Shown: positions 30,206 through 54,258, counted from the first letter of the stretch. The stretch: 64,000 nt of DNA from Promethearchaeota archaeon (GCA_048939995.1 JBHLOY010000013.1:1-64000); one strand, 5' to 3'. Translations and numbers: made by a program. The notes: generated by a model from the letters alone, not told the origin.

Positions 30206-30282
30206 TTCTTTTTTTATAATATTTCAATAATTTGCTTTTAATTGTTAAATAGTTCATTTTTTTGCTGTTTTATATAATTATC

Positions 30283-30303
30283 TTTTGAACAATATGTTCA
30301 AAA
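30283..30303. promoter_or_regulatory. Palindromic operator TTTTGAAC-N5-GTTCAAAA (copy 1)
   Basis: TTTTGAAC AATAT GTTCAAAA, 78 bp upstream of the SBP gene and adjacent to a minus-strand TATA (TTATATAAAA, 30278-30269). Confidence 0.7.
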
Positions 30304-30456
30304 TGTTGTACACTTATTTCTTTTATAAGATTATGATCCCTCTTAATAAATTTAGAGAATAAAGGTATGACACAAGGAGATTTTTTTGTGCCAAATCCAT
30401 TTTGAGAGATTTTGTAAATTAAAATAAATTCCATTTTATCACTCCTCATTTGTATT

Positions 30457-33171
30457 TTATTTTGACTTTGATGGCCTAGTTTTCCAAACTTTAATCGATT
30501 CAAAAATAAACACGGCAGTTCCAAAAATCAAGAAAACTAATAGAAGTATACTGCCTGGATTGGTAATGAAGTTATCGCCATATATACTAGCAAAAATTAG
30601 GTACCCTATAAAGCCTAACACATTGATAACTAAGTATAATGAAAATCGAGGTATCATTAGAAAACCAATATGAGTGTAAAACCCTAAAATTCCTTTTTTT
30701 AATTCTTTATTCACGTAATATTTTCCGTCTTTATCGCTTTTTGATATAATTCCAGTTTTTAATAACTTATCTATTTGATAAGATACGGTTCCTGGCGATG
30801 AAAACTTTAATGATTTCTGGATTTCTCGTACTCCGGCACGACTATGAGTCAAAATATACCAATAAACTCGAAGCGTTTTACCTTGTAATACTTTTTCTGG
30901 GCTAACATTAAGAGGCTTAGTTTTAACTTTAGTTAATATCTTTATATGAACGAGTCTCTCTTTAACTTTGGACCTTGGTAGTGTCTTTCTCTTTCCCTTG
31001 GTTAGTTTTTTCCGTTGGACGTACCATTCAATAGATAGAATACCAACAAAAATGAGGGAAACACTTATTAAAATGCCAAATTGTAAAATTAAATAATAAC
31101 CTGGAATTAATGGACCTTCAGTATCGATAGATTCAGGTTTTTCATAATAGTCAGTAATTGTATTGTTAATAAATATGTTCCCAATTACATTGTTATAACA
31201 CGAAAGTTCAAGATATATCCCAATCTCGTTGTTACTTACTATATTTCCTAAAACTAAATTGGATTTACTCACATTTAAACCAATACCTATCCAAAAATTA
31301 TTATCTACGGTATTCAAATATATAGTATTATTATTGCTATCTTGTAAAGCTATACCAGCAAGAACATTATAGTTTGCAATGTTTCTAGTAATATTGTTAT
31401 TTTTGCTGTTAATTAAGCCTATTCCAACAATATCATTGTTATTTACGATGTTTCCCGATATTATATTATTATTGCTGTCTTGTAAGACTGCTCCAGCCAG
31501 ACCATTACAGTTTGCATAATTCTCAGAAATCAGATTTCCACTACTATTTTCAACGAGTATTATACCAACTAGATTATTATCTACGATATTTTTTGTAATG
31601 TTATTATAATGACTATTTAATACAAATATCCCATTACTGTTGTTGTTGATAATGTTTCCCATTATAATGTTATTAATATGATTATAAAAGCCTATTTGAA
31701 TCCCATTAGTATTATTATTTACAGTGTTACCAGAAATAATGCAATTATCTCCGCGCAGGAGTATCCCATTCTCACTATTATTTACCATATTTCCCGAAAC
31801 AATATTATTATCGCCTAGGATTCGAATACCTTCTCCATAAAAGTTATGAACACCATTTGAGGAAACTTTGTTTTTCAGGATGTTATTCTTATTCCCTTTA
31901 ATTTCGATGCCATTATATTCGTTATATTTTACCGTATTTTCTGTGATAATAGTTTCATTTCCATCAAATATACTTATTCCAACCCCATCATTATTAAAGG
32001 TATTTCCAGAGAGCATGATGTTATCGCAATAAAATAATTTTATCCCATTGTTAAAATTGTAATTTGCGGTGCTTCCTGAAATACTATTGTTATTACTCTC
32101 AATTAAGCTTATTCCGTTATAACCATTACTTGCGTTAATTCCTAAAATAGTGTTGTTATTAGAGAAATATAATGCAACTCCCGTATTGGCATAGGAAACA
32201 TCCAAATTTGAGATATTTGAATTATTACAATTAACTAAAATAACTTGACCAGCATTAGTAAAATTGTTTGAACTTAGACTTTTTTCATTCTTATAATAGT
32301 ATAAAGGTTTGCCATTAACTAAATTTGAATTGTCTATATCGTGGGAATCTAATTCGTCAATTGATCCTCTTACCTCTAACCCATTATTATTTAAGATATT
32401 TTTGGACACTGTATAATTTACACCTTCTCTGGCAATAATTCCGCCCCAGCGATTATTTATGACAAAATTTCCTGAAATTGTTGTACTTTCGCTCTGTTCT
32501 AATAAAATTCCATTAAGATTATTACTTAGAAAGTTTCCAGTAAGATTATTGTTCCCACCACCATTTAATGATATTCCATAACCGTTATCAGTTAATGAGT
32601 TCCCCTCAATATTGTTTCTATTACTATTAAACATGATATTTATCCCTATCTCGTTTTTATTTACGTCGTTTCCTAAGATACTGCTATCATTACAATTTTC
32701 CAAGAATATCCCATTATAATTAAGTGAAAGATTGTTATTAATTAATTGAGCATTACTAACATTTGACAATACAATTGCCCCTCCCCAACCATATTCATAA
32801 CGATCAACAGCTAATGAGTTATAAATGGTACAATTTTCAATTTTAAAAAAAAATCTTGAATTCTCAATCAAGATACCGTAGACCATTCCGTCGACCTCAA
32901 TTATAAGATCTTCTATAATATAAGGATCGGTAAAATTCCCATAACCTGTGACTATTTTCGCAATCTTCGTTTCAGACCAATTATTATTGATGTGAATAAT
33001 TCTTGATACTTTTGAGATTTTCAAAGTTTTGCCATCTAAGTCAATATCATCAAGATTTTCTAAATTTTTCTTGTTATCTCCGTAATTATTTATAAGGTGG
33101 ATTTTTGTTGAAAATACAAAAATAAATCCAAATATGGCTATTAAATTTATTATTTTTATGATTCTTTTCAT
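30457..33171 (-). CDS. Receptor-like fusion: NosD/right-handed beta-helix ectodomain, IPGY-TM, LexA-like wHTH, 2 TM
   Basis: Signal peptide; GNFTDPYIIEDL; many ~22-aa N..GI.L..S.NN.I.GN repeats; LIPGY-TM-RKK; C-terminal 145 aa are 68% identical (98/145, hand count) to 27528..27965. Confidence 0.85.
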   Translation of the reverse strand: MKRIIKIINLIAIFGFIFVFSTKIHLINNYGDNKKNLENLDDIDLDGKTLKISKVSRIIHINNNWSETKIAKIVTGYGNFTDPYIIEDLIIEVDGMVYGILIENSRFFFKIENCTIYNSLAVDRYEYGWGGAIVLSNVSNAQLINNNLSLNYNGIFLENCNDSSILGNDVNKNEIGINIMFNSNRNNIEGNSLTDNGYGISLNGGGNNNLTGNFLSNNLNGILLEQSESTTISGNFVINNRWGGIIAREGVNYTVSKNILNNNGLEVRGSIDELDSHDIDNSNLVNGKPLYYYKNEKSLSSNNFTNAGQVILVNCNNSNISNLDVSYANTGVALYFSNNNTILGINASNGYNGISLIESNNNSISGSTANYNFNNGIKLFYCDNIMLSGNTFNNDGVGISIFDGNETIITENTVKYNEYNGIEIKGNKNNILKNKVSSNGVHNFYGEGIRILGDNNIVSGNMVNNSENGILLRGDNCIISGNTVNNNTNGIQIGFYNHINNIIMGNIINNNSNGIFVLNSHYNNITKNIVDNNLVGIILVENSSGNLISENYANCNGLAGAVLQDSNNNIISGNIVNNNDIVGIGLINSKNNNITRNIANYNVLAGIALQDSNNNTIYLNTVDNNFWIGIGLNVSKSNLVLGNIVSNNEIGIYLELSCYNNVIGNIFINNTITDYYEKPESIDTEGPLIPGYYLILQFGILISVSLIFVGILSIEWYVQRKKLTKGKRKTLPRSKVKERLVHIKILTKVKTKPLNVSPEKVLQGKTLRVYWYILTHSRAGVREIQKSLKFSSPGTVSYQIDKLLKTGIISKSDKDGKYYVNKELKKGILGFYTHIGFLMIPRFSLYLVINVLGFIGYLIFASIYGDNFITNPGSILLLVFLIFGTAVFIFESIKVWKTRPSKSK

Positions 33172-33431
33172 TTTACTTTCTCTAAATATTATCCATGTAG
33201 GGTAATTGTTAAGTTAAGTAAAGTGGTACTGCTATATTCTAAATAATTCGGTACTTTTCTATTTTATAAAGTTTTACTAAGTTTTTAGTATAATAAATGT
33301 TGTTATTATAAAACTGTAATTGGTTTCAGTTTGAATCTAATTCATATTATTAAGTTGAGAATTTAAGCTAATTCCTTTGATATAAAAAAAAATGTAAATA
33401 ATATTTATTTTTCATTATGTGCAAGTATCGT

Positions 33432-34148
33432 TTACGTATTTGATTTTTTTAACTTTTTACCGATTAGGAATATCACAATCGAAAGTGTCCCAACTAGAAT
33501 TAATATACTATATCCTGGAATTCCTGATATTAGTGGTCCAGTTAGGGCATTAGTACTAACAAAAATTGCTTTCTTCCAAAATCCGCTATATTGAAATGTA
33601 CCATTTAAGAAAATTCCTGTGCTTTTTTCATACCAAACTGCGCTTCCATTAGAATCCTCTAATTTCCATACTTCTATTTGGCCATAACCAGGCATAGTCC
33701 AATTTAATTCGGCAGTAACATTAAAATTTTGGTCTCCGCCTGAATAAATAAATATTTGAACAATATCATTAAGTGAAATATTAGTTAAAATCCTAGTCCA
33801 TGTATGAGACCCAGCAACGGGACTCGGCAGGTCTGTATTTGATACAATTCTTGAGCTTAATTCCTCATCCCAAGAACCTTGTTCTGCTGGGGTTCCTAAA
33901 GTTCCCTCTCCTAAGAACCATATAACATGATAAACATCATCTGAAACTCTGCTGAATTCGATGTTAGCTTCTTGTGTTTCAAATATGTGAAAAGAATCAG
34001 AGTGGATATAATTAACGTACATCCCATCAAAAACTCCTGTTGTACTAGAATAACCCAATGCTATAAAATGAGAAAAGAATACAAATGAAATTATCGACAC
34101 AAGAATATACTTCATGATTTTCTGCCTATATTTGCCTTTTTCTTTCAT
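33432..34148 (-). CDS. Secreted surface protein with IPGY-TM-basic (Loki-CTERM-type) sorting tail
   Basis: Signal peptide; WYEKSTGIFLNGT; ends GIPGYSILILVGTLSIVIFLIGKKLKKSNT. Confidence 0.8.
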   Translation of the reverse strand: MKEKGKYRQKIMKYILVSIISFVFFSHFIALGYSSTTGVFDGMYVNYIHSDSFHIFETQEANIEFSRVSDDVYHVIWFLGEGTLGTPAEQGSWDEELSSRIVSNTDLPSPVAGSHTWTRILTNISLNDIVQIFIYSGGDQNFNVTAELNWTMPGYGQIEVWKLEDSNGSAVWYEKSTGIFLNGTFQYSGFWKKAIFVSTNALTGPLISGIPGYSILILVGTLSIVIFLIGKKLKKSNT

Positions 34149-34232
34149 ATTTTTTACCTACTTTACTCAATTTAGTGGTTTTTTTATAAATTTCTTAAAT
34201 ATTTGTTTTGATTTCTATTTCTTAAATCTATT

Positions 34233-34253
34233 TTTTGAACGCCCCGTTCAAAA
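34233..34253. promoter_or_regulatory. Palindromic operator TTTTGAAC-N5-GTTCAAAA (copy 2)
   Basis: TTTTGAAC GCCCC GTTCAAAA, 85 bp upstream of 34148. Confidence 0.7.
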
Positions 34254-34279
34254 TTCTGTACATTCGCATAACATAGTTT

Positions 34280-34300
34280 TAAGTTTCAAATTGAAACTTA
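34280..34300. repeat. Perfect inverted repeat TAAGTTTCAA-A-TTGAAACTTA
   Basis: 10-bp arms; a related TTTCAA-N9-TTGAAA follows at 34307-34327. Confidence 0.5.
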
Positions 34301-34418
34301 TTACTGTTTCAAAGTATAGTCTTGAAAGTTATCCCAATTTAATAAAAAGGTATTAACTTAAAAAAAAGAAAAACTACAATGTAATTATTTTATTCTTTAT
34401 ATTTCTTTACTCTTATGA

Positions 34419-34574
34419 GTAAATGCATATTTAGGAATTCCTAACGGGGATCACTATCTTCCTATGATTTATATTCTGGCGCTTCAAGATGAGAAAGACG
34501 CGATAAAATTTATGTATGAAGGCTTTCAACATGGTTCTATTTCAATGAGATGCTTCCAAATTATCATTGAATAA
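34419..34574 (+). pseudogene. Displaced 3' fragment of ygiD (right copy of direct repeat)
   Basis: Translates VNAYLGIPNGDHYLPMIYILALQDEKDAIKFMYEGFQHGSISMRCFQIIIE*, 41/51 identical to the C-terminus of 26691..27491; preceded by in-frame TGA where the intact gene has GGA. Confidence 0.88.
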
Positions 34575-34606
34575 CATTGTAAGGATTGCGTGAGAATAAA
34601 AAAAAA

Positions 34607-35053: not shown

Positions 35054-35342
35054 TTTAAAACACTGCTTTTAATACTTATACTTATTGTAATTTAATTTAT
35101 ATAATTAACCCTTGCAATAGAACTTTTTCAGTAATTCTTTTTAACTATTTAATTGAGCTTTGCTCATGGATTTTCAATGAGAGTGAGTATTAATGAAAGA
35201 GACTAATGAACCTAAAAAATTGAAACAATAAAAGATTTACTCAAATTTATATAATCATTTGGTTATAATAATATCAAACAACCAATTAATCCGTAATTAT
35301 AATTTTTCTGATCTACAATCATTTTCTTTTGATTTATACATC

Positions 35343-36890
35343 ATGTCAATAAATAGAAATAAATTATTAATGGAATTATTCGCGAATTTCATACAGGCAA
35401 ATAAGGAAGTTGAAGCTATTATAGTTTCCGATAAAGATGGATTAATAATTTCCGGAGAACGAAGAAAAGATGTGGATATAGAGTTAGTTTCGATAATGAC
35501 TGCGGTGGTTAACCCTGTTATTGAGCGATTTCGTGATGAATTTTCCTATAAGAAATTTGGGACCGCAAGTTTTGATACTGAAAATAATCGTCTTTTGTTC
35601 ATCACTATAACAGAAAATGTAACATTAACTTTAGTTATTGAAAATCTTGGCTCGATTGAGAAAATAGCCCCCTATGCGTATTTTCTTGCTGAAAAAGTGG
35701 CACAGATTATAGTTGCAACTAATGAAGATCTAATTGAGGTATCAATTCCTAATTTTGATTATAAAACTGAAGGATATTATGGAAGTGATGCTCAACTTTT
35801 TCAAATTGGTTTAGAACCAGGTGGAGAATATAGATTTAAATTTATAGTTATAGGTGACCATGAAGTTGGTAAGACTTCAATTCTACGTAGATTTGTAGAA
35901 GGGAGATTCTTAGTAGATTATCGTACTACTATTGGATTGAACGTTTTGACTCATAATTTCGAATTTTTTGGCAACAAAATTAACGTATTTCTCTGGGATA
36001 TAGGAGCTCAACAATATTTTAAAAGATACCGTAAAGTTTATTACAAAGGTGCACAAGCTGCTTTTATCATTTTTGATTTAACAAACAAGGATTCTTTTTA
36101 TAACGTAATGAATTGGTTTAATGAATTGAATGAGTTTAAGGAACATGAAATCTCAATAGTAGTCGTTGGAAATAAAAAAGATTTAGAACAGCAAAGAGAA
36201 GTTGATTATGAAGAGGCAACTACTTTAGCTGAAATGTTATCTGAAAAATATAACAAGAAAATTTCTTATATTGAAACCAGTGCTTTAACAGGAGAGAATA
36301 TTGAAGAAGCATTTGGAATTGTATCCTATCATTTTATAATGCTAAGCAAAGAATTTGAGGAAAAAAATTTAAGAGAAAAGATTTTTACTGAAATTAATTC
36401 GGTATTAGATACACGAAATTCACTTTCAATTGCATTTATATCAAAAAATTTCCAAAAGAATCCTATTATAATGCTTTTAAAAGAGATAGAACCTTTAGGA
36501 TTGTCTTTAAAAATGGAAAAAAAAGATAAAGTGATCTATCAATTTGCAAATGGATTAACCTTGGAAAGTTACAATTTCGATTCAATGAAAGTTTCTGATT
36601 CTGATGGAGCTTTTGTAATTTTTGATGGGAAGGATAGAGATTCCATTGACCCGAAATGGAATAGTATTATATTACAAATTTTAAAAACAATCAAGGATAA
36701 CACTGTGATTTTAATCGGTATAATTACTAAAAAAGATGTAAATTGGTCAAAAATGATGAGTGAGTTTAACTTTTATACAAAGTTAGAAGCAAAGCAAATC
36801 TCGTATTTTGTATTTAAAATTGACTCCGATTCTAAAATAGAATTATATGAACACATAAATACTATGTTCAATACTATTAGGAATCTTTAA
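35343..36890 (+). CDS. Roadblock/LAMTOR-like domain, Rab-like GTPase, degenerate second G-domain
   Basis: VEAIIVSDKDGLIIS (roadblock); GDHEVGKT, TTIG, WDIGAQ, NKKD, ETSAL; C-terminal SDGAFVIFD...VILIG strand pattern; start likely ATG 35343 (ORF track 35259). Confidence 0.85.
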   Translation: MSINRNKLLMELFANFIQANKEVEAIIVSDKDGLIISGERRKDVDIELVSIMTAVVNPVIERFRDEFSYKKFGTASFDTENNRLLFITITENVTLTLVIENLGSIEKIAPYAYFLAEKVAQIIVATNEDLIEVSIPNFDYKTEGYYGSDAQLFQIGLEPGGEYRFKFIVIGDHEVGKTSILRRFVEGRFLVDYRTTIGLNVLTHNFEFFGNKINVFLWDIGAQQYFKRYRKVYYKGAQAAFIIFDLTNKDSFYNVMNWFNELNEFKEHEISIVVVGNKKDLEQQREVDYEEATTLAEMLSEKYNKKISYIETSALTGENIEEAFGIVSYHFIMLSKEFEEKNLREKIFTEINSVLDTRNSLSIAFISKNFQKNPIIMLLKEIEPLGLSLKMEKKDKVIYQFANGLTLESYNFDSMKVSDSDGAFVIFDGKDRDSIDPKWNSIILQILKTIKDNTVILIGIITKKDVNWSKMMSEFNFYTKLEAKQISYFVFKIDSDSKIELYEHINTMFNTIRNL

Positions 36891-36924
36891 ATAAAGAAAA
36901 ATAGATACTATGATAAGTTTAAAC

Positions 36925-39900
36925 TTATCTAGAGAAATATTCCTTTAACTCATGCTTAACTGAACCTTTTCCTTTGAGATCATAGAGTAATTCATCAGTA
37001 CTATGAATAATTACCTCACTTAATTCGTGAGTCTCACGTAAGATATCAAATTGTCCTTTATAATACAGATCGATAATCTCATTAAATGCCTCCTCATATA
37101 CTCCTTTCAATCCTATTGATTGAATAAATGCCTTATAATGATTGATTCTAACATTTTTCATAGGACCTTGAAATGAAAAAGACTCATTATTTTCTAGCAA
37201 TTTAATAACAACAATGATTAAGAGCGTGTTTGCATTCTGAAAATCTTTACTTGATTTGATAATATCTTCATTAGATGTATCCTCAGTGTAAATTATTTGA
37301 ATCGATCTAATTCTGTCCCTAATTGATGGATCTATATTTAGGAACGAAACTTGATCATCAAAAAGAATTAATCCATGGATTTTATTTTGAATATCATCAT
37401 AGATTTGAGGATTGGAATAATATTTAATACCAATTTCATCAAAATACTTCGTCAATAAATCGTTAATGCAGGAATAAACAAGTTCTACTTCTCCCATAAC
37501 TAGTGGTGTTCCTGTTATTTCTAATTTTCGGTCTTGTTCATGTTTAGATTCTTGATTGTCAACATACATTTTAAGATTTTCAGAGACTATCTTACTTTCA
37601 TTATATAGTTCAAGTGATTTTGAATAATCTCCAGATATTGCAGCTTTTTTGGATTCAATCTCATATTGATCCTTCAAATAGTTAAGACCTTTAATTGCGA
37701 TATCGATTTGTTTTTGACGGTAAAAATCTGCATTTTGAGAGTTTCCAAGAATCTCTTCAATAATAATAATTTCACCTGCAAATCCTGCTGCTTTGACATA
37801 ATCTTTCTCTTCTGTTAATTTGTTAACATAAGCAATTACTTTCTCTCTTCTGGCAAGTAGATCTGCTTCAGTCTTATCTTTGAGCGTTTCATAATCTAAT
37901 AAACTTAATTCTTCATAAATTTTCAACTTTGCCTTAGTTACTGGCTGCTTTTCTGATATTTGAATACCTATTTCCTTCTTCTTACTCTTTGATTTTTTTA
38001 GCACTACAATTCCTACTACCCCACCTATAGCTGCTCCTATTACAACAAATATTATCCATAATGGAAATTCAGATGGTTGAGAAGTGGATGTTATAGAAAA
38101 GCTATCTGTTGCGGCAGGACTCTGATGACCTGCACCATCAATTTGATATAAAAAGTAATAATAAATTCCTGGTTGAAGAGATTCCATATACTCATAATAA
38201 TTACCCGTTAAGTTTATTGCAAACACGAATCCAGGGGTAGCTAAAGGATTTGCTTCATTATCTATAATTAATCTATACTTAATTATCCCAGAAGGATCGG
38301 AACCATCTTGCCATTCAAATATTAAAGTACCACTTACAGCTCCTTGGGGAGCCTGTATTAACGACGGTGCTGGAGGAGCAATTGTATCTTTATATAAAAC
38401 TATTAGCACAGGGTCGCTCAAATGATTAAGAGTATCATTTGCATAGATATAAACATAAAATCTTCCTTCTGGTAAACTATTCCAAATTAAATTATTGAAT
38501 GGTTGGTTAATATTATTTCCCAACAAGATGTTAGTTGTGTTTACTTGATACCAAATTAGATCTAGATTAGCATCTGTAGCTAAAACATTGATAATAGGTG
38601 CTGCTCTGCAGTAAGTGTTATTCAACGGGAAATTTAATGCAATTGAAGGTGCTATTGTATCTTTTATTATCGTTATCTCATCAAATCCAATAACTCCTAA
38701 AGTATTATTTATATAAAAACTAATCGTAATAGTACCATCTGATTTAGCGTCCCATGCTAATTGATTTATAGTCCCAGTTAGCCCTGTAAATGTATAATTT
38801 ACTATTCCATTATCTAAAGTATACCAACTTGTATCTAGATTGCTTCCACTTATATTAACAGCATAATTCGGCGCTGTATTACCATACACACCGTCTGAAA
38901 TAGGAGTATTAATCATTATCATGGGAAAGAAGATATCTTTATAAACAATAACTTCTGCTGTTCCTAAATTGCCTACTGTATCATTAGCATAAAATTTGAT
39001 CATTATTGTTCCATTACCAACTTGCTCCCAAACACTCTGAGCGATTGCTCCTGTCCATGTGTAATTATTAGTAACAATAGTTCCATTGTCCAATTGATAC
39101 CATTCATTATCTAAATTAGCGTCATTAATATTAATAGTAATGCTTGGAGGTGAAATCCCAAACAAGTCATAATTATTTGGTTCTGTAATAATTATAGTAG
39201 GAGTAATTGAATCTCTATTGATTACCACACTCGCAGCATCCCAGTTACCAGCAGAATCATTTACATAAAATAGTATCGTAATAGAACCTTGACCTGCAGT
39301 ATTCCATGCCGTAGAATCGATCGTTCCGCTCAATGCTCCTGTGAAGTTATTTAGACCTCCATCAAGTGTGTACCAAATCCTATCTCTATTCGATTCAGTG
39401 ATAGAAAGAGTATAACTTGGAGGAAGGCTACTGAACCATGCTCCAGGTAATGGTGAATCGATACTATCTATTGAAGGATTAACGGTATCTCTATAAATTG
39501 CTACGCTCGCAGTATCCCAGTTACCCGCAGAATCATTTACATAAAATATAATTGTAATGGAACCTTGGCCTGCATTATTCCATGCTAAAGAGTTGATTGT
39601 TCCGCTTAATGCTCCGGTATAGTTATTTAAGCCTCCATCAAGCGTATACCAAATCCTATCTCTATTCGATTCAGTGATAGAAAGACTATAACTTGGAGGG
39701 AGGCTACTGAACCATGCTCCAGATAATGGTGAATTGATACTATCTATTGAAGGATTAATGGTATCTCTATAAATTGCTACGCTTGCAGTATCCCAGTTAC
39801 CCGCAGAATCATTTACATAAAATATAATTGTAATGGAACCTTGGCCTGCATTATTCCATGCTAAAGAGTTGATCGTTCCGCTTAATGCTCCGGTATAGTT

Positions 39901-43995: not shown

Positions 43996-44435
43996 TCTTG
44001 TAAATTTTAAAAATATACAAGAAAGTATATATAATATAGTGTATGTTTATTTAAATCTTTCAAAAATAAAGGAGGCACTAATGGAGATAATTCTAAATAA
44101 GATCCAAGTAATTAAAGGGAATAAAAGGAGAATTTTAAAATAAAAAAACTAAAATTTTCCTTCTTATGTAAACTTTATCGGAATTTATGAAGTAATTAAA
44201 AAAGAAATAAATGGTGTAAACGCTTCAGAAGCAGTTGCAAGGATTTAGGACGGTTAAGAGGACAATTTCAATTTTAAGTTTATACAATTTTATCTTTATT
44301 AAGATAGAAAGTACTTATAAAATAATATTAGAACCTTAAACTTATGTAAATTAATACTAGGATTAACCTATTAAGAACCTTTAGATAAAAAAAGAAATAT
44401 CAAAAATAAAAATAGATTTAATATTAAGGTTATAT

Positions 44436-47400
44436 TTATCGATGAAGATATTCTTTTAACTCATACATAACTAAACCCTTTTCTTTGAGATCATAGAGTA
44501 ATTCATCAGTACTATGAATAATTACTTCACTTAATTCATGAGTCTCACGTAAGATATCAAATTGTCCTTTAAAATAGAGATCGATAATTTCATTAAATGC
44601 CTCCTCATACACTCCCTTCAATCCAATTGATTCAATGAATGCCTTATAATGATTTATTCTGACATTTTTCATAGGACCTTGAAATGAAAAAGACTCATTA
44701 TTTTCTAGCCATTTAATAACAACAAGGATTAAGAGCGTATATTCATTCTGAAATTCTTTACTTAATTTAATAATAGCTTCATTAGATGTATCCTCAGTGT
44801 AAATTATTTGAATCGATCTAATTCTGTCTCTTATTGATGGATCTATATTTAGGAATGAAATTCGATCATCAAAAAGTATTAATCCATGTATTTTGCTTTG
44901 AACATCGTCATAGATTTGAGGATTGGAATAATATTTAATACCAACTTCATCAAAATACTTTGTCAGTAAATCATTTATGCAAGAATAAACAATTTCTACT
45001 TCTCCCACAACTATTGGCGTTTCCGCTACTTCTAATTTTCGGTCTTGTTCAAGTTTAGCTTGATTGTCCATATACCTTTTAAGATTTTCTGATACTATCT
45101 TACTTTCATTATATAGTTTAAGTGATTTTGAATAATCTCCAGATATTGCAGCTTTTTTGGATTCAATCTCATATTGATCCTTCAAATAGTTAAGTCCTTT
45201 AATTGCGATATCGATTTGCTTCTGACGGTAAAAATCTGCATTTTGAGAGTTTCCAAGAATCTCTTCAATAATAATAGTTTCACCTGCAAATTCTGCTGCT
45301 TTGACATAATCGTTTTCTTCTGTTAGTTTATTAACATGAGTAATTACCTTCTCTCTCCTAATAAGTAAATCTGCTTCAGTCTTATCTTTGAGTGTTTCAT
45401 AATCTAATGATTTAAATTCTTCATATACTTTCAATTTAGGCTTAGTTATTGGCTGTTTTTCCGTTATTTGAATAGGTACTGCTTTCTTCTTCTTCTTACT
45501 CTTTGACTTTTTTAGAACTATAGCTCCCACGACTCCACCGATAGCAACTCCTATTACAATGAATATAATCCAGAATGGAAATTCTGATGGTTGAGAACTG
45601 GACATTATCGAAAAACTGTCTGTTTCAGCAGGACTCACATTACCTGCTCCATCAATCTGATATAAAAAGAAATAATAAGTTCCTGGTTGAAGAGATCCAG
45701 TATATTCATAATAATTCCCAGTTATGTTTATTTCAAATACAAATCCAGGTGTGATCAAAGGATTTGCTTCATTATCTATAATAAGTCTATATCTTAGTAT
45801 CCCAGAAGGATCAGAACCTTCATACCATTCGAATATTAATGTACCACTTACTTCTCCTTGAGGAAAATTTATTAAAATTGGTACTGAGGGAGCAATTGTG
45901 TCCTTGTATAAAACTAACAAGATATAGTTACTCAAATGATTAACAGTATCATTTGCATAGATGTAAACATAAAATTGTCCTTCTGATAAACTATTCCAAA
46001 TTGAAATATCTAATTGCTGATTGATATTATTTCCCAGTAATATACTAATTGAGTTAACTTGATACCAAATTGAATCTAGATTTGGATCTATAGCTAATAC
46101 ATTGATCATTGGTGATATTCGACAATATGAATTATTCAATGGGAGATTTAATATAACCGATGGTGCTAAAGTGTCTTTTATAATAGTTATCTCATCAAAT
46201 CCTATAACTCCTAACGTGTTATTTATATAGAATCTAATTATTACATCACCATCACTTTGGGCGCTCCATGCTAATTGGCTTATAGTTCCTGTTAATCCTG
46301 TAAACGTATAATTAACTAACCCATCATCTAGCGTATACCACCTTGAATCTAAATTACTTCCACTTACACTAACAATAAAACTAGGTGCTGTACTGTTAAA
46401 AACCTCGTTAAAATTGGGATTGTTAATTGTTATTATAGGAGCGAAGACATCCTTATAAACTATCACTTCTGCAGATCCTAAATTACCCAGCGTGTCATTT
46501 GCATAAAACCTAATGATAACTGTACCATTACCAACTTGATCCCATACGCTTTGAGCGATAAAACCTGTCCATGTGTAATTATTAGTAATAATAGTTCCGT
46601 TGTCCAATTGATACCATTCATTATCTAAATTAGGGTCATTAATATTTATGGTAATGTCTGGAGGTTCATTTCCAAACAATTCATAATTAGTTGGTTCTAT
46701 AATAGTAACGGTAGGAGAAATTGTATCTCTATTAATTACTACACTCGCAGCGTCCCAGTTACCTGCAGAATCATTTACATAAAATATAATCGTAATAGAA
46801 CCTTGACCTGCATTATTCCATGCCGTAGAGTCGATCGTTCCGCTCAATGCTCCTGTGTAGTTATTTAAGCCTCCATCGAGCGTATACCAAATGTTATCTC
46901 TATTCGATTCAGTGATAGAAAGAGTATAACTTGGAGAGAGGTTACTGAACCATGCTCCAGACAATGGTGAATCGATACTATCTATTGAAGGATTAATTGA
47001 GTCTCTATAAATTACTACGCTTGCAGTATCCCAGTTACCCGCAGAATCATTTACATAAAATATAATTGTAATAGAACCTTGACCTGCATTATTCCATGCT
47101 ATAGAGTCGATCGTTCCGCTCAATGCTCCTGTGTAGTTATTTAAGCCTCCATCAAGCGTATACCAAATCCTATCTCTATTCGATTCAGTGATAGAAAGAG
47201 TATAACTTGGAGGGAGGCTACTGAACCATGCTCCAGACAATGGTGAATCGATACTATCTATTGAAGGATTAATTGAGTCTCTATAAATTACTACGCTTGC
47301 AGTATCCCAGTTACCCGCAGAATCATTTACATAAAATATAATTGTAATAGAACCTTGACCTGCATTATTCCATGCTATAGAGTCGATCGTTCCGCTCAAT

Positions 47401-50400
47401 GCTCCTGTGTAGTTATTTAAGCCTCCATCAAGCGTATACCAAATCCTATCTCTATTCGATTCAGTGATAGAAAGAGTATAACTTGGAGGAAGGGTACTAA
47501 ACCATGCTCCAGATAATGGTGAATCGATACTATCTATTGAAGGATTGATAGTATCTTTGTAAATTTGTACGGAATCAGAGGTTTCAATACCAAACGTATT
47601 GTTTAAATAAAATGTAATCGTATTAGAACCTTGACCAGCATTATCCCATGCTGTAGAATCAAATATTCCAAACCAAGTATCTGTTAGATTAGCACTACTC
47701 GTAATAGTATAATTGTTAAGTCCATTATCAAAAGTATACCATATGGAATCACGATCATTTCCGCTCACATAAACATCATAATCAGGATTAGATCTAAACC
47801 ATTCGGCAGCATTAGGTAAATTAATAGAAATTGATAAATCTGAAGTTTTTGTTACTCCCACACTCGCTGAATCCCAATTTCCCACGGAATCGTTTACATA
47901 GAATGTAATTGTGACTGCACCTAAACCTGCATTACCCCAAGCTATAGAATTAATTGTCCCACTCAATGCCCCTGTGTAGTTGTTTAAACCATCATTAAGG
48001 GTATACCAAATCTTATCTCTATTCGCTTCGGTAATGGAAAGACTATAACTTGGTGGGGTTGAATGGTTTGAACCAGGCGAGGGCGAGTTGATACTGATTG
48101 AAGGTTTAATAATATCTTTCCTAACGATTATTTCTTTATAACTAATATTACCTAATGTATCATTTGCATAAAATCGAATTGTTACTGTTCCATTACCTAA
48201 TGCACTCCACATGTTTTGATCAATGGTTCCACTAGCGCTAACAGGCGTAGAATTAGTGGCCCCTCCATCTAAGGTATACCAAATAGAATCTAAATTGGGA
48301 TCCGTAACTGTAAGATCATAATTAGGCGCGCTCGATCCAAATATATCATTCAAGTTTGGAGAATTAATAGTTATTTCTGGTCCTGAAGTATCTTCACTCT
48401 GATATTCAGCTCCTACAGAGTAAAAGCTATCTGGATCATATTGATTGTTGTATTCGGTAGCAATCCAATCTGCAGAACGACCAACCTGAGAAATCCGAAC
48501 CTCATCAATTTGTCCTAACCACGGATATGACCATGCTACTCCTTCAGGTTGATCTCCATGCCCGATTCTAAAAGAAAACGGCAGAGCACTTACAATATTA
48601 TTTGTTTTAGATAAGGTGGCAGGATCTGGTATTCCATCTACATATATTCTCATTTCAGTTCCATTATATGTAGCAACGACATGATGCCATATATCTGATG
48701 AGATGGTTTGTGCAGTTTCTAAATCACTCTCATTTCCAGGAAGTTGAAAGCTCATCAACTGACTATTAAGATCCATTACAAGGCGATATCCATTATAAAA
48801 ACCTTTATGGTTGAGAGGACCCATCCAAGGATGAGTTAAAGGATATTTCATCCATAACTGTATAGTTATTTGATTAGTTGTAAGATCTAAGCTTGTATCA
48901 TTTCCGCAATCGATAAAGTGATCACTAAAATTTTGGCCATAACCAATAGATCCCGTAACTTTGCTTGGAATATAAGTTATATTTCCTAATCCACCTTGAC
49001 CATGATTCCCATAGTGACTACTATCTGCATATTCATTCACTGTTCCTATTCCTATCTCTTTAAGATGCCAAACTCCAACATAATTTGGATTCCATACTCC
49101 CATGGGGTTCTCTTGAGACCCCATCGTTGAATTTCCATAATACATAGTGATGTTAGTATCAATTGAAGATGATAGAGATGGAATTCGAACCCAAATAATT
49201 AATTGAGCATGAGTAGCACTATAACTTTGATTGAATAGTTCAATTTCATGATCTAACCACGTATCTCCGCTATAAAAGGCAATATCATCACCATCTGTTT
49301 GAGTATGAATATGTAAATCTGAATCAAACAAAGAAATTAGTACGGGAAAATTAATTAGATCGTTTAATCCAGTTACCATTGTTGAGTTAATTGTTATGAC
49401 TTTATAATAAGCGAAATAATTCACATTCCGAGCTAAATTTGTTTCTTCAATTCCCACAGAATAAAAAGATTTAGGATCATTTTGATTATTATATTCGGTG
49501 GCAATCCAATCTGCAGAATGTGTTTTACTAGAAATACGTATTTCATCGTATTTGCCTTCAAAATGACCAAGTTGACTGATATTAACAGAAGCACCCCATA
49601 ACCAATCCTCCAGTTGAGCTAATTGGGTCCAATAGGTATCAACATTAATAATATCAAATGTACTAGGAGATCCATCAAGATACATTGTTACATTTCTGTT
49701 AGAATAATTAAATGTAACAATCAGATAATGCCAGATTCCATTAGTAAAGGGGTTTGTTTTTAAGTTATAATTAAGACTATTTCCTCCCCAGGGATAGAAG
49801 AAATTATCTCCATTTTGATTAACAGACCATTCAAAACCGTCTCTATGATTAGGAGCTATTCTATTAAAACGATTACTAGTAGTCATGATTCTTTGATATT
49901 CACCAGTTTTAGACGAATTTACCCAATTAATCCATAGGGATAAAGTTCCCTCATCGTTTATTGAATTTAAAGATGAACTTCTTGAAATATTGATAAAATC
50001 ATCAATCCCATCAAAATCATAACCCTTTCCAATTTGAGAATTAACTAAATCTATATTATCCATTGAACCATTAGTTATTCCATTATTTCCATGGTATGTA
50101 CTATCATATACATCATTCATTATTCCAGTTGGAGCATCATTTAAATGATAAACTCCAACATAATTTGGATTCCATACTCCCATAGGGTTTTCTTGAGGAC
50201 CCATAGTTGAATTTCCATAATACATATAGATTTTTGTGTCAGTGGATGTCGAGAGCGAAGGAATGCGAACCCAAGCAATTAATTGGGCATGGGTAATGTT
50301 AAAATCTTGATTAAATAGTTCTATTTCGTGATCTAACCATTCAATACCATTGGTAAAAACAATATCATCTCCATCTGGTTGAGCATGGTCATGTAAGTCT

Positions 50401-51740
50401 GAGTCATACATAGAAATTAGTACAGAAAAATTAATAAGAGAGCTTGAACCAGAGACTTTGGTATGGTCAATTGTAATTTCTTTGCGAAAATTAAAAGAGT
50501 TCACATTTGGAGGGCGTTTAAATGTCGTATATTCTCTACTTACTGAATAAAATGAGCTAGGTTCGTATTGATTATTAAATTCCGTTGCAATCCAATCTGC
50601 AGAGCATGTTGTATTTAAGAGTCTTAATTCATCAATTTTGCCTTTATAGAGTTGTAGGCTAGGACTATCTAAATTTATACCTATAGTAGCATTATTAGCA
50701 TTAAAATCTATATTGTTAACAAATTCATCAACTTGTTTGGAACCATTAATATATAATTTTAGAGTTGTTCCATCATATGTTCCTACTAAATGAGTCCAAA
50801 TGTTATCATTTATACCATAATCAGAAATGGCATATCCCATATTAAGCCCATCACCAATAGCTATTCTTGCATTTCTGCTAGATGATGAATGAAAGCCTTG
50901 AACCCTAATCCCTATCTGATCACCCCATGAAAAACCGCTACAAAAAATTGGAGAACGTGTGTCTATTGTTGTATTAAAAATTCCATTATACCATGTTTCA
51001 ATGGTGAATGAGTTTATAGGTTTTAATCCTGAATTGTTTCCTAAACTTATATAATCATTTCTTCCATCAAATTCTAAACTTCCAGCAATATGTCCTTTTA
51101 CTTGATCATTACTACTCATTGACCCATGGGGAGTCCCATGATAAGAGTTGGATGTACTGTCCTTAACTTGAGATATAGATGGATCCTCCTTTAAATGCCA
51201 TACCCCTTTATAGTTATTATTCCAAACACCTGTAGGATTTTCTCGAGCGTCCATAGTAGGATTTCCATAATACATAGTGATTTCAGTGTCCACTGATGTA
51301 GACAAGGAAGGTATTCGAACCCAGGCAACTAAATGAGCATGAGTAGCGCTATAATTTTGATTAAATACTTCAATTTCATGGTCTAACCACTCATTCCCTA
51401 TTGCAAATGCAATATCATTTCCATTAGATTGAACATTTTGTCGTAAATCTTTATCGATAATCGAGATTAATAAAGGAAAATTCGTATGGCTTCCTATACC
51501 ACTAACTTTCGTATTATCAATAGTTATTACTTTATAAAAATTGAAGTCAGTATAATTAATAGGAGAATTAGCTAGAGGAATCTTGATATTTAAATTATCT
51601 AGATTATTATGTGAGCGATTATTTTTTATAAGAATGTCTGATAAATTAATAATCGATAATGAACTACACGTAAAAAGGAGAATTAAAATTATAGCTTTAA
51701 AATTTACTTTTTTCAACCTACTTACCCTATTCTTATACAT
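44436..51740 (-). CDS. Giant single-pass surface/receptor-like protein B (3x [DUF2341+LamG], Ig-like stalk, TM, cytoplasmic domain)
   Basis: Paralog of 36925..43995; three NFP.LIS.D.DL...WVRIPSLS...YYGN + GVWHL...DWIATE.NNQ modules; stalk, TM and C-terminal domain closely match protein A. Confidence 0.85.
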   Translation of the reverse strand: MYKNRVSRLKKVNFKAIILILLFTCSSLSIINLSDILIKNNRSHNNLDNLNIKIPLANSPINYTDFNFYKVITIDNTKVSGIGSHTNFPLLISIIDKDLRQNVQSNGNDIAFAIGNEWLDHEIEVFNQNYSATHAHLVAWVRIPSLSTSVDTEITMYYGNPTMDARENPTGVWNNNYKGVWHLKEDPSISQVKDSTSNSYHGTPHGSMSSNDQVKGHIAGSLEFDGRNDYISLGNNSGLKPINSFTIETWYNGIFNTTIDTRSPIFCSGFSWGDQIGIRVQGFHSSSSRNARIAIGDGLNMGYAISDYGINDNIWTHLVGTYDGTTLKLYINGSKQVDEFVNNIDFNANNATIGINLDSPSLQLYKGKIDELRLLNTTCSADWIATEFNNQYEPSSFYSVSREYTTFKRPPNVNSFNFRKEITIDHTKVSGSSSLINFSVLISMYDSDLHDHAQPDGDDIVFTNGIEWLDHEIELFNQDFNITHAQLIAWVRIPSLSTSTDTKIYMYYGNSTMGPQENPMGVWNPNYVGVYHLNDAPTGIMNDVYDSTYHGNNGITNGSMDNIDLVNSQIGKGYDFDGIDDFINISRSSSLNSINDEGTLSLWINWVNSSKTGEYQRIMTTSNRFNRIAPNHRDGFEWSVNQNGDNFFYPWGGNSLNYNLKTNPFTNGIWHYLIVTFNYSNRNVTMYLDGSPSTFDIINVDTYWTQLAQLEDWLWGASVNISQLGHFEGKYDEIRISSKTHSADWIATEYNNQNDPKSFYSVGIEETNLARNVNYFAYYKVITINSTMVTGLNDLINFPVLISLFDSDLHIHTQTDGDDIAFYSGDTWLDHEIELFNQSYSATHAQLIIWVRIPSLSSSIDTNITMYYGNSTMGSQENPMGVWNPNYVGVWHLKEIGIGTVNEYADSSHYGNHGQGGLGNITYIPSKVTGSIGYGQNFSDHFIDCGNDTSLDLTTNQITIQLWMKYPLTHPWMGPLNHKGFYNGYRLVMDLNSQLMSFQLPGNESDLETAQTISSDIWHHVVATYNGTEMRIYVDGIPDPATLSKTNNIVSALPFSFRIGHGDQPEGVAWSYPWLGQIDEVRISQVGRSADWIATEYNNQYDPDSFYSVGAEYQSEDTSGPEITINSPNLNDIFGSSAPNYDLTVTDPNLDSIWYTLDGGATNSTPVSASGTIDQNMWSALGNGTVTIRFYANDTLGNISYKEIIVRKDIIKPSISINSPSPGSNHSTPPSYSLSITEANRDKIWYTLNDGLNNYTGALSGTINSIAWGNAGLGAVTITFYVNDSVGNWDSASVGVTKTSDLSISINLPNAAEWFRSNPDYDVYVSGNDRDSIWYTFDNGLNNYTITSSANLTDTWFGIFDSTAWDNAGQGSNTITFYLNNTFGIETSDSVQIYKDTINPSIDSIDSPLSGAWFSTLPPSYTLSITESNRDRIWYTLDGGLNNYTGALSGTIDSIAWNNAGQGSITIIFYVNDSAGNWDTASVVIYRDSINPSIDSIDSPLSGAWFSSLPPSYTLSITESNRDRIWYTLDGGLNNYTGALSGTIDSIAWNNAGQGSITIIFYVNDSAGNWDTASVVIYRDSINPSIDSIDSPLSGAWFSNLSPSYTLSITESNRDNIWYTLDGGLNNYTGALSGTIDSTAWNNAGQGSITIIFYVNDSAGNWDAASVVINRDTISPTVTIIEPTNYELFGNEPPDITININDPNLDNEWYQLDNGTIITNNYTWTGFIAQSVWDQVGNGTVIIRFYANDTLGNLGSAEVIVYKDVFAPIITINNPNFNEVFNSTAPSFIVSVSGSNLDSRWYTLDDGLVNYTFTGLTGTISQLAWSAQSDGDVIIRFYINNTLGVIGFDEITIIKDTLAPSVILNLPLNNSYCRISPMINVLAIDPNLDSIWYQVNSISILLGNNINQQLDISIWNSLSEGQFYVYIYANDTVNHLSNYILLVLYKDTIAPSVPILINFPQGEVSGTLIFEWYEGSDPSGILRYRLIIDNEANPLITPGFVFEINITGNYYEYTGSLQPGTYYFFLYQIDGAGNVSPAETDSFSIMSSSQPSEFPFWIIFIVIGVAIGGVVGAIVLKKSKSKKKKKAVPIQITEKQPITKPKLKVYEEFKSLDYETLKDKTEADLLIRREKVITHVNKLTEENDYVKAAEFAGETIIIEEILGNSQNADFYRQKQIDIAIKGLNYLKDQYEIESKKAAISGDYSKSLKLYNESKIVSENLKRYMDNQAKLEQDRKLEVAETPIVVGEVEIVYSCINDLLTKYFDEVGIKYYSNPQIYDDVQSKIHGLILFDDRISFLNIDPSIRDRIRSIQIIYTEDTSNEAIIKLSKEFQNEYTLLILVVIKWLENNESFSFQGPMKNVRINHYKAFIESIGLKGVYEEAFNEIIDLYFKGQFDILRETHELSEVIIHSTDELLYDLKEKGLVMYELKEYLHR
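46725..47555 (-). repeat. Three near-identical 276-bp tandem Ig-like repeats
   Basis: Anchor points 46998, 47274 and 47550 are 276 bp apart; nearly the same sequence as the repeats at 39211-40041. Confidence 0.9.
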
Positions 51741-51886
51741 TAAATTAATACCTTACAAAAGTAATATGAATATCATATAGTGGGTGAATTTTTAAATAAT
51801 CGCAATGCGTAGTGATTTAAGGTTATTAATTTATATCTTAATTGTTGAACTTTAATGAATTAATTATGAAATTATCCAGTAGGAAT

Positions 51887-52459
51887 CTATCGTAAAAAAA
51901 ATTTTGATTTATTAGGAATAGGAAGTGAATTAGGAATTTCCTCAAGATTAATATTCTTTAACATTAACCTAGTTAAAGTATTAAACACTTTTTCTATATT
52001 TACCCCTGTCTTGCTAGAGCACTCTATAAAATCATCAAGCCCCATTAATTTTGCGCTGTTCTCGCCTTTCTCGAATGATACTTTTCTTTGATTCTCTAGA
52101 TCAGTCTTTCCACCGACTAGAATGATTGGAAATATCTGTTTTGATTCACTAATGATCGATAACCAATCACTCAAATGATAGAGTGAAGATTGATTCGTGA
52201 TATCATACATCATTACTCCGCCCATTGCTCCAAGCACATATTGAGGAAAGAGGAACCTAAAACTCTTTTCCCCACCAAAATCCCAGATCATTAGCTTTAC
52301 GTTAAATCCATCTATCGAAAGGCTTGTAGCATCAAAATCGACTCCAATTGTTTTATAAGTATTTGGGATGAATTTTGTTGTTAAAAACCGCTGAGTTAAG
52401 GTTGTTTTGCCACACCCAGCATCACCAAAAATAACAACTTTGAAAATTGCATCAAACAT
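51887..52459 (-). CDS. Rab-like small GTPase
   Basis: GDAGCGKT, TIGVDF, WDFGGE, GGKTD (G4 Asn to Gly), ECSSK. Confidence 0.9.
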   Translation of the reverse strand: MFDAIFKVVIFGDAGCGKTTLTQRFLTTKFIPNTYKTIGVDFDATSLSIDGFNVKLMIWDFGGEKSFRFLFPQYVLGAMGGVMMYDITNQSSLYHLSDWLSIISESKQIFPIILVGGKTDLENQRKVSFEKGENSAKLMGLDDFIECSSKTGVNIEKVFNTLTRLMLKNINLEEIPNSLPIPNKSKFFLR

Positions 52460-52490
52460 TTTAAATATCGATTTTTAATTAAATTTTAAA

Positions 52491-53003: not shown

Positions 53004-53206
53004 TATTACCCCTTTGTGTAATAGACTAATGCAAAAATAAAAATAATAATATTCATATATAAATCTTTTCAATAAAAATGCTCAATTTATCGTTTTTTTC
53101 ACAGAAGTTAATGCTATTTTGTTTTTCATGAGATATTTTAATTTTATTCCTTTTTATCCTACGAAATACACGAAATATTCTTCTTGCAAGAAAACGTCTA
53201 AAAACT

Positions 53207-53338
53207 AAGGTTCTAGACTTAGATATCCAAAGTTTCAGACTTGGAGTATTTATGTTAAAAGAGATAATTGAATTAAATTATGGTAAGATAAGCATTGAAT
53301 CATTAGGGAGAAATAGAGGAAGTAGGCAGGACCTTTAA
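53207..53338 (+). pseudogene. Decayed C-terminal fragment of a histidine kinase ATPase domain
   Basis: KVLDLDIQSFRLGVFMLKEIIELNYGKISIESLGRNRGS resembles the HATPase_c end G.GLGL.ISKEIVELHGG.I.VES.G.N.GS. Confidence 0.5.
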
Positions 53339-53470
53339 ATAAAAGATATTCACTACCTGCTGCTTCAACCAAAATAATTGCGAAAATAGAAGTAATATAC
53401 CTTAATTATAATTTTCTTACCTTTTATAAAGACAAAAAAGTTTTAATTTTTAGCAAAAAACCCAATACCT

Positions 53471-54079
53471 ATGAATCTATTTCAAATTTTAGCAATATGT
53501 GGAATACTTAGTCCGATTATATATACTGCGATGTGGGCTATTATTGGTAGTGTTCAGAAGGATTATAGTCATATTCGCGATGATATAAGCTCACTTTTTG
53601 CAGTCGGTGCTCCCTACAGACGTTTTGCACAAGCGCTCATGATAATATCAAGTATTTTATTGCTTGTGTTTTATATTGGATTACATGAGGGTATAAACGA
53701 TGTAGGAGGTTCAATCTTAGGCCCTATTTTATTCTTGATCAGTTCCATTTTAGGCACTCTCGTGGCTCTCTTTTTCCCTCTTGATGAAGGAGGTGAAATA
53801 AAAACTTTTAGAGGAAAAATGCATATAGCACTGGTAATCGCGATGGGATTATTAACAATCGCAGGCATGGTGGCATTGTGGATTCGATTACAATTTGTAA
53901 CCGGTTGGAGCGTTTTTGCCACATACTCACTTGTTTCAGCTGTAGTTTCTTTAGTTTTAACAGTTGCCTCTGGTATTTTCGCTACAGGTAAATATAGGGG
54001 TATACTCGAGAGAATAGGAGTGACTCCTTATCAGTTATACTATTTTGTTCTTGGTCTGATGCTTTTTTTGTCTAATTAA
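53471..54079 (+). CDS. DUF998 family membrane protein
   Basis: DYSHIRDDISSLFAVGAP, FP.D, MH, GILER. Confidence 0.85.
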   Translation: MNLFQILAICGILSPIIYTAMWAIIGSVQKDYSHIRDDISSLFAVGAPYRRFAQALMIISSILLLVFYIGLHEGINDVGGSILGPILFLISSILGTLVALFFPLDEGGEIKTFRGKMHIALVIAMGLLTIAGMVALWIRLQFVTGWSVFATYSLVSAVVSLVLTVASGIFATGKYRGILERIGVTPYQLYYFVLGLMLFLSN

Positions 54080-54174
54080 TCAGCAAAGTAATCTTCGCTT
54101 ACTCATCAAAAGGAAAAATTAAAAAAAAATTAATAATAAATTCCTATTCTTTACCACGCATCGTTTATTCCATC

Positions 54175-54191
54175 TTGAACATAGAGTTCAA
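54175..54191. promoter_or_regulatory. Palindromic operator TTGAAC-N5-GTTCAA (copy 3)
   Basis: TTGAAC ATAGA GTTCAA, 68 bp upstream of 54259 and just upstream of TATA-like TTTTTAAAAA (54201). Confidence 0.6.
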
Positions 54192-54258
54192 TCAACTCTC
54201 TTTTTAAAAAACTTTTAAAATGATATACTCAAATTATGACTAAACTAAATTATTTAAT

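Follow-up and report, generated by a model that had tools for sequence, protein, structure and literature searches.

Three copies of the palindrome TTGAAC-N5-GTTCAA lie within 64,000 nt of the genome of a Promethearchaeota archaeon (GCA_048939995.1, JBHLOY010000013.1:1-64000; this whole stretch is referred to as the window), and they raise the question of whether they mark promoters under common control and, if so, which protein would bind them. A first-pass annotation had read them as SOS-box-like sites of LexA-like, membrane-tethered winged helix-turn-helix (wHTH) proteins that control three promoters. Our comparisons indicate that two of the copies, sites 1 and 2, quite probably serve as operators for winged-helix regulators that are tethered to the membrane and whose genes lie in the same 7-kb block. 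The host is an Asgard archaeon, a Promethearchaeota/Hodarchaeales-like metagenome-assembled genome (MAG), so its promoters are expected to consist of a B recognition element (BRE) and a TATA box, and the LexA/SOS framing is wrong. The wHTH has homologs in MAGs titled Promethearchaeota, Candidatus Hodarchaeota or Hermodarchaeota, and more distant ones in Bathyarchaeia.

Exact copies at 30285-30301 (site 1), 34235-34251 (site 2) and 54175-54191 (site 3) are all that the window contains, and none of 100 dinucleotide shuffles of the window gave any match. The whole assembly (38 contigs, 3,754,348 bp, 30.5% GC; genome G000, in which the window is C31:1-64000) has four exact copies, the fourth of which (C23:80) is within an open reading frame (ORF). 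When intergenic and coding DNA were separated with a crude ORF mask (88% coding), three intergenic copies were observed against 0.036 expected in 446 kb, and one coding copy against ~0.4 expected, with expectations taken from composition or from hexamer counts. Genome-wide, the same arms at other spacers from N0 to N11 gave at most one exact match each, and GAAC-N4-GTTC was at background, with 22 copies compared to 17-38 for other spacers. The three copies reported for the window are thus confirmed, far beyond chance by both the shuffles and the genome counts. As for promoter enrichment across the genome, three of the four exact copies are indeed intergenic, but the 'regulon' is a local cluster of two or three promoters and not a genome-wide network. 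An Rfam scan of 27-56 kb found no RNA family, and the palindromes do not correspond to a known RNA element.

Sites 1 and 2 are each part of a larger element, and the features of their promoters are as follows.

30283 to 30312, minus strand: composite operator 1, with box A TGTACA at 30307-30312, box B TTTTGAAC at 30296-30303 and box C GTTCAAAA at 30283-30290.
30270 to 30277, minus strand: TATA-like box TTATATAA, read from the sequence, 9 nt after the GTTC core of box C and 5 nt after the 8-nt box.
34233 to 34262, minus strand: composite operator 2, with box A TGTACA at 34257-34262 and the B-C palindrome at 34233-34253.
34220 to 34227, minus strand: TATA-like box ATTTAAGA, after a conserved AAAATAG.

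Both sites form the core dyad (boxes B and C) of a 30-bp element, TGTACA-N-TTTTGAAC-N5-GTTCAAAA, with a TATA-like box ~10 nt further on. In the direction of transcription, site 1 reads TTTTGAACA-TAT-TGTTCAAAA and site 2 reads TTTTGAACG-GGG-CGTTCAAAA. The first-pass description of conserved arms around a free 5-bp spacer therefore stands for the arms but not for the spacer, as these are 21-bp palindromes (9+3+9). Box A is located 4 nt beyond each palindrome, at a fixed offset. The TATA-like box is equally placed in the operators of the related genomes G066, G068 and G070, and operator 2 is orthologous to sites with G-rich spacers in G032, G012 and G066. Sites 1 and 2 have paralogous promoters (70% identity over 71 nt); between them, the 5-nt spacer and the 2-nt gap between boxes B and A are identical at 0 of 7 positions and the boxes at 23 of 23. 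Site 1 lies 79 nt from a start at GTG 30205 or 91 nt from ATG 30193, and site 2 lies 86 nt from ATG 34148. Together with site 3 (see below), the distance to the start codon ranges from 67 to 91 nt depending on the start chosen, close to the 68-85 bp first reported.

A second palindrome, GTTTCA-N3-TGAAAC, is present at 34283-34297, ~20 nt upstream of box A of site 2, and a variant, GATTCAAACTGAAAC, at 33323-33337. All three exact genome copies of GTTTCA-N3-TGAAAC are intergenic (further G000 positions are C17:336196 and C17:411609), and promoters of G008 and G066 have similar elements in the matching position. Another factor probably binds this second palindrome.

Within the 7-kb block, the genes around the two operators are the following.

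28085 to 30205, minus strand: first gene of operon 1, encoding an orphan SBP_bac_5 extracellular solute-binding protein (SBP; Pfam E = 1e-53).
27528 to 28088, minus strand: 186-aa regulator with a wHTH at about residues 47-102, followed by two long transmembrane (TM) helices (wHTH-2TM).
33432 to 34148, minus strand: 238-aa exported protein behind operator 2, with a GIPGY-TM-KK tail (Loki-CTERM-like).
30457 to 33171, minus strand: 904-aa fusion of a NosD/beta-helix ectodomain, IPGY-TM and wHTH-2TM, the second copy of the regulator module.

ATG 30193 is the more likely start of the SBP_bac_5 gene. The start codon of the regulator gene overlaps the SBP stop codon (28085-28088), and the same 4-nt overlap is found in orthologs. 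No ABC permease or ATPase genes were found with Pfam in the region surrounding the SBP_bac_5 gene. The 186-aa protein has a confident wHTH and then two TM helices, with ~15 residues from the wing to TM1; a DNA-binding domain and a TM segment in one protein, a layout in which 57 homologs are alike, make it a transmembrane transcription regulator. The wHTH-2TM module occurs in only two copies in the genome, namely the 186-aa protein and the NosD fusion. Pfam and NCBIfam gave nothing at threshold for the wHTH-2TM protein, a search of PDB sequences with the family profile gave no match, and Foldseek on the wHTH returned only generic winged helices of MarR, ArsR, IclR and MecI type (MarR, CadC, BigR, MecI, PadR and IclR, E 0.013-0.08). 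The 238-aa protein scored 17.5 bits for NCBIfam Loki-CTERM (cut-off 19.9), and its tail is 66% identical to that of a Kelch protein behind the orthologous operator of G066.

The evidence that ties the operators to the wHTH-2TM proteins comes from relatives. The family, with ~150 loci of which 149 are confirmed, is patchy, being present in 13 of the 36 congeneric genomes sampled, and has two classes. Class 1 regulators (~187 aa, wHTH and two TM helices) are encoded downstream of an SBP-like gene. Class 2 regulators (230-265 aa, with two TM helices, the wHTH and two more TM helices) are monocistronic, so that the regulator is the sole gene behind the palindrome. Exact TTGAAC-N5-GTTCAA was not found beside wHTH-2TM genes in relatives. 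It is rare there (0-3 copies per genome, like a reversed control, in 60 relatives and the five closest genomes), and every copy examined away from the regulator locus was inside an ORF. A wide regulon that uses the exact motif in relatives was rejected because its copies are rare and ORF-internal.

It is the arrangement that is conserved. Orthologous SBP-wHTH operons, including those of G012, G014, G032, G061, G066, G068, G070, ABR03 and WORC5, have GTWC-N8-GWAC-N5-GTWC, AAAATAG and a TATA-like box, and the element is kept at orthologous promoters in at least 14 other genomes. The half-sites themselves vary from genome to genome: TCTGTAC-N5-GTACAGA in G014, TTCGAAC-N5-GTACGAA in G012 and G032, TTTGAAC-N5-GT(A/T)CAAA in G066, G068 and G070, and TTTTGTAC-N5-GTACAAAA in G069. 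Every genome-specific variant has the GTWC box 8 nt upstream and AAAATAG and the TATA-like box after it, and operators within one genome have a common half-site variant, even on separate contigs (G012, contigs C39 and C50; G032; G066).

Variants of the recognition helix (residues 74-85 of the 186-aa protein), GTVSYQ, GTVAYQ and GTVTYQ, seem to track the half-site variants, with few independent points; GTVTYQ pairs with the GTAC half-site in G014. TTGTAC-N5-GTACAA at G014:C220:49802 was rejected as an operator, being inside a dehydrogenase gene. In MAG ABR03, two complete tripartite operators are located in tandem, 40 bp apart, before one operon of an SBP-like gene and a regulator gene (L080:3017-3121).

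Class 2 genes have TGTTCRAA-CT-TTYGAACA (GTTC-N8-GAAC) 70-150 nt upstream of the start, which matches boxes A and B of class 1. Distant class 1 loci have a GTTC-N8-GAAC-type arrangement as GTWCTAAC-GTTAGWAC, in one case (L092) as a tandem pair of units spaced 21 bp apart. Of 46 Asgard regions upstream of a wHTH-2TM gene or operon, 35 had one or other core pattern (16 of 19 for class 2 and 18 of 23 for class 1); the rest of these loci, 559 kb in all, gave a background of 0.02-0.03 per 300 nt. A strict tripartite search of 42 genus genomes gave genuine intergenic operators in the family-bearing G000, G012, G014, G032 and G061, and also in G020, where the 3.7-kb contig ends inside the first operon gene and the regulator gene falls off the contig end. 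Among the remaining matches, that in G028 was checked and is ORF-internal; near-identical copies are in G009 and G020, and one match is in G003. Footprinting in genomes with and without the family, which had been suggested as a check, thus supports the association: genuine tripartite operators were found only in family-bearing genomes, the G020 regulator lying off the contig end.

Fourteen operators of other genomes, none of them from G000, were used to train weight matrices, and these recovered both sites. Scanned over the G000 genome, the B-C matrix ranked sites 2 and 1 first (25.2 and 21.7 bits, compared to 15.4 for the next distinct site), and the A-B-C matrix ranked sites 1 and 2 first (35.3 and 33.6 bits, compared to 14.5 for the best background). 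To measure how well the arms pair, 19 operators were aligned. Complementarity of the B-C dyad is 80.7% in register but 26-51% in slid registers. Four positions have symmetric double changes; 10 such cells were counted where shuffling gave 4.9, and 1 of 500 shuffles reached 10. Pairs 19-35 and 20-34 switch from T:A to C:G in three and five operators. Judged on this alignment, the palindrome behaves as a true dyad, a caveat of kinship (see below) notwithstanding. Its proposed nature as a site of a dimeric transcription factor is therefore supported by comparative evidence that includes symmetric covariation of the arms.

How far does the controlled set extend? In G066, the closest relative, three tripartite operators are located in one locus, before a gene for a Kelch and Loki-CTERM protein, a gene for a NosD and PKD protein, and the SBP-regulator operon. 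Two operators are present in G032, separated by 1.5 kb, and two in G061; those of G012 are on separate contigs. In G018, the class 2 palindromes TGTTCAAACTTTTGAACA (L152, G018:C177:2488) and TGTTCAAATTTTTGTACA (L154, G018:C192:4861) precede a NosD/beta-helix gene and a gene for a 12-TM membrane protein by ~75-90 nt, on contigs other than that of the regulator; these genes are possible distant targets. The operators of these five genomes point to a controlled set of only a few genes, which encode exported or surface-anchored proteins and the regulator itself.

Site 3 lies 20 kb from the other two, with the following features.

54175 to 54191, plus strand: site 3, TTGAAC-ATAGA-GTTCAA, B-C core only (6+6).
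54201 to 54221, plus strand: two TATA-like runs, TTTTTAAAAAA and TTTTAAAAT, the second conserved in the promoter of the G010 ortholog.
54259 to 55035, plus strand: ATC_hydrolase-family gene (Pfam E = 4e-18).

The likely start of this gene is TTG 54274, after GGAGAGGGAG, which places site 3 82 nt upstream (67 nt for TTG 54259). Site 3 is an exact 12/12 match to the core and is intergenic, with a chance probability of p ~0.035 genome-wide, and its spacing to the TATA-like run behind it equals that of sites 1 and 2. It lacks box A, the A-tract and ATAG, and its inner pair is asymmetric. On the family matrix it scores 5.8 bits, which 344 genome positions reach. We compared the ATC-hydrolase promoter with others, including those of five genus orthologs and three from the closest wHTH-bearing genomes. 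In the G010 ortholog (76% identical) the proximal promoter is conserved and the palindrome is not, and neither GWAC-N5-GTWC nor GTWC-N8-GWAC was found upstream of ATC-hydrolase orthologs in ten genomes, five of which have class 1 regulators of similar half-sites. We put the prospect that site 3 functions as a lineage-specific extra target somewhat short of an even chance. Of the three promoters first proposed to be under control, those of the SBP-regulator operon and of the gene for the IPGY surface protein are supported by the comparisons; control of the ATC-hydrolase gene is unproven, site 3 being low-scoring and not conserved.

A second ATC-hydrolase paralog has TTGAACTCCATGTTTAA, with one mismatch (GTTT for GTTC), 314 nt upstream (C28:299231-299247). 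This site is suggestive (p ~0.004 for a single test), although it was picked out after the fact and departs from the invariant core. Among ~20 orthologs of the second paralog the motif occurs in one, that of G008 (0.26 expected), as TTGAAC-TCAAG-GTTCAG ~125 nt upstream (G008:C3:100858-100874; L053:2368), and may be a chance match.

The following mechanism would fit these data. The operator would consist of three ~8-nt half-sites, TGTWCRAA, with box A in forward orientation, box B facing back 2 nt later and box C forward again 3 nt after that, box C ending ~10 nt before the TATA-like box. Two cytoplasmic wHTH domains, each anchored in the membrane through its pair of C-terminal helices, would bind as a dimer just upstream of BRE/TATA and control the regulator's own operon (orphan SBP and regulator) and the neighbouring gene for the Loki-CTERM-anchored surface protein. 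In archaea, factors bound upstream of BRE/TATA generally recruit TBP/TFB, and repressors overlap or follow the TATA box. Since the whole element is upstream of the presumed BRE/TATA, activation by TBP/TFB recruitment would be slightly the likelier mode. Co-transcribed or fused extracellular proteins would feed a signal to the regulator. Such an input is suggested by an SBP that has no transporter genes nearby and is translationally coupled to the regulator, and by the ectodomain fused in the paralog; by analogy, it would resemble that of bacterial co-component systems (PMC9214523). A broader picture is possible, though we consider it less likely than not: an Asgard-specific, kinase-free transmembrane signalling module in which a minimal wHTH-2TM regulator, whose extracellular partners (orphan SBP, NosD beta-helix, Kelch propeller; fused or separate) are interchangeable, would activate its own operon and surface genes through the A-B-C operator, with co-evolving half-sites and lineage-wise targets such as the ATC-hydrolase gene.

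Several observations weigh against reading sites 1 and 2 as operators of the wHTH-2TM proteins. The assignment of these proteins as the putative binder is purely comparative, and was made because the module is the only feature common to class 1 and class 2 loci. The GWAC motif is missing from 11 of the 46 Asgard upstream regions and from all 11 upstream regions of Bathyarchaeia homologs, the G008 operator is decayed, and no GWAC operator was found upstream of the NosD-wHTH fusion gene (33172-33431), where the variant of the second palindrome lies. Sites 1 and 2 are in paralogous promoters and are thus not two independent events in this genome. The kinship of the sequences inflates the shuffle statistics for covariation. 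The A-B pair is 75% complementary and its covariation is no better than that of shuffles, and a dimer may use either pairing of the boxes. As to the mode of action, TATA and BRE positions are predictions from the sequence alone, and a possible overlap of the box C A-tract with the BRE would also fit repression.

A different, unlinked transcription factor, such as a soluble wHTH or an Lrp/AsnC protein, could bind the palindrome, and its association with wHTH-2TM genes would then reflect co-regulation. A candidate is encoded 4 kb from site 3 (58062-58955), a 297-aa double-HTH protein of AsnC type, and archaeal Lrp-type dimers recognise inverted repeats of 13-17 bp that are AT-rich in the middle (PMC6396743). 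The action of other factors at these promoters is indicated by the conserved GTTTCA-N3-TGAAAC, and the link between the wHTH and the motif is, as noted, a comparative one. However, the wHTH-2TM module is the sole feature shared by class 1 operons, whose partners are SBP, Kelch or NosD proteins, and class 2 genes; the motif tracks the module across genomes of differing gene content, and the half-sites differ by genome, as expected of a factor-operator pair that co-evolves locally. We therefore consider an unlinked factor unlikely.

Less likely still is that there is no functional set, sites 1 and 2 being relics of promoter duplication in an inserted 7-kb block and site 3 a chance match. The 70% identity of the two promoters over 71 nt, the duplicated regulator module and a 160-nt direct repeat that flanks the block would fit this, as would the low matrix score and lack of conservation of site 3. 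Yet sites 1 and 2 have diverged fully in the spacer and the gap between boxes B and A while all 23 box positions stayed identical, the element is kept at orthologous promoters of those 14 or more genomes, and an exact intergenic match such as site 3 has the chance probability given above. The original framing, in which a LexA-like repressor binds an SOS-box variant before a three-promoter stress regulon that includes the ATC-hydrolase gene, is very improbable: a GAAC...GTTC core that resembles the Cheo-type SOS box (GAAC-N4-GTTC), a winged-helix fold and weak matches to Pfam LexA_DNA_bind (E = 4.5e-4) and TIGR00498 (E = 0.008) are all that it shares with LexA, whereas those matches fall below their cut-offs (PF01726, 20.4 bits compared to 23.7; TIGR00498, 15.8 compared to 110.95) and are equalled by weak TrmB, HTH_24 and ArsR matches, the fold matches are generic, Pfam and NCBIfam found no S24 peptidase domain and the C-terminal half is two TM helices, the spacer is N5 with the N4 form at background, the targets (SBP, Loki-CTERM protein and ATC_hydrolase) include no DNA-repair gene, and the element of this Asgard host is upstream of the TATA-like box and not over it. 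What survives of the first-pass annotation here is the link between the motif and the membrane-tethered wHTH proteins of the same block, which the comparative evidence supports; the LexA-like identity of these proteins does not survive.

Palindromic autoregulatory operators of winged-helix dimers are ordinary, and membrane-tethered regulators are a known kind. What is new is a wHTH-2TM family and its operator as a pair in Asgard archaea, the tripartite layout, and the sharing of one half-site, differently arranged, between two paralogous classes. Neither a survey of transmembrane transcription regulators (PMC10269533) nor PMC9214523 describes an Asgard example.

The closest known analogue would be ArnR of Sulfolobus. 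ArnR and ArnR1 have an N-terminal HTH and two C-terminal TM helices, bind TCGAC-N5-GTCGA at -43 to -84 and activate transcription (PMC6396743). The likeness to the S. acidocaldarius proteins, which act at flaB promoter boxes, is drawn from their description in that paper: both systems are archaeal and membrane-bound with the same order of HTH and TM helices, in both, the inverted repeat upstream of BRE/TATA has arms of 5 nt around an N5 spacer (YGWAC-N5-GTWCR here), both have more than one box, and in both the regulated genes encode cell-surface structures. Unlike the 186-aa protein, which has no intervening domain, ArnR has HAMP and sensor domains between HTH and TM; sensing here would presumably be delegated to the co-transcribed or fused extracellular proteins. 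The lineages also differ (Asgard and Crenarchaeota), and the boxes described here are tripartite (A-B-C).

ToxR/ToxS, VtrA/VtrC and CadC (PMC10269533, PMC9214523) likewise have a membrane-tethered DNA-binding domain that acts on the chromosome, and in vtrA/vtrC, as here, the regulator gene overlaps that of the extracytoplasmic partner. These bacterial proteins have an OmpR/PhoB-type winged helix, a single TM helix and their own periplasmic domain, whereas the proteins described here have a wHTH of MarR/ArsR/TrmB type, two TM helices and hardly any external loop; their partners are SBP_bac_5 or Loki-CTERM-anchored proteins rather than the lipocalin-like partner of the obligate VtrA/VtrC heterodimer. 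The fold class and a dyad operator before the regulator's own operon recall autoregulated MarR/ArsR dimers, but those are soluble and mostly repressors, with operators that overlap the promoter, and no family cut-off was reached here. The comparisons thus correct an attractive but wrong SOS/LexA annotation. They also offer a concrete pair for specificity studies, namely a 30-bp element with defined boxes, a small expressible soluble wHTH domain and dozens of natural operator variants, and they suggest that membrane-tethered regulators, known as ArnR in Crenarchaeota and as ToxR-like proteins in bacteria, are used in Asgard archaea for the control of surface-protein genes.

Two observations concern the surroundings of the sites. 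The 160-nt direct repeat (81% identity, 27330-27489 and 34413-34572) brackets the 7-kb block with both regulators and sites 1 and 2; it duplicates the 3' end of a LigB-family gene (26691-27491), which suggests an insertion or recombination scar. The region as a whole encodes Ras-family GTPases, NosD/beta-helix proteins and the SBP_bac_5 protein. A matrix scan upstream of the genes for the giant proteins and Ras GTPases between sites 2 and 3 gave no operator-like motif; there, two Ras-family GTPase genes (35259-36890 and 51887-52459) flank two giant paralogous proteins of 2356 and 2434 aa (36925-51740).

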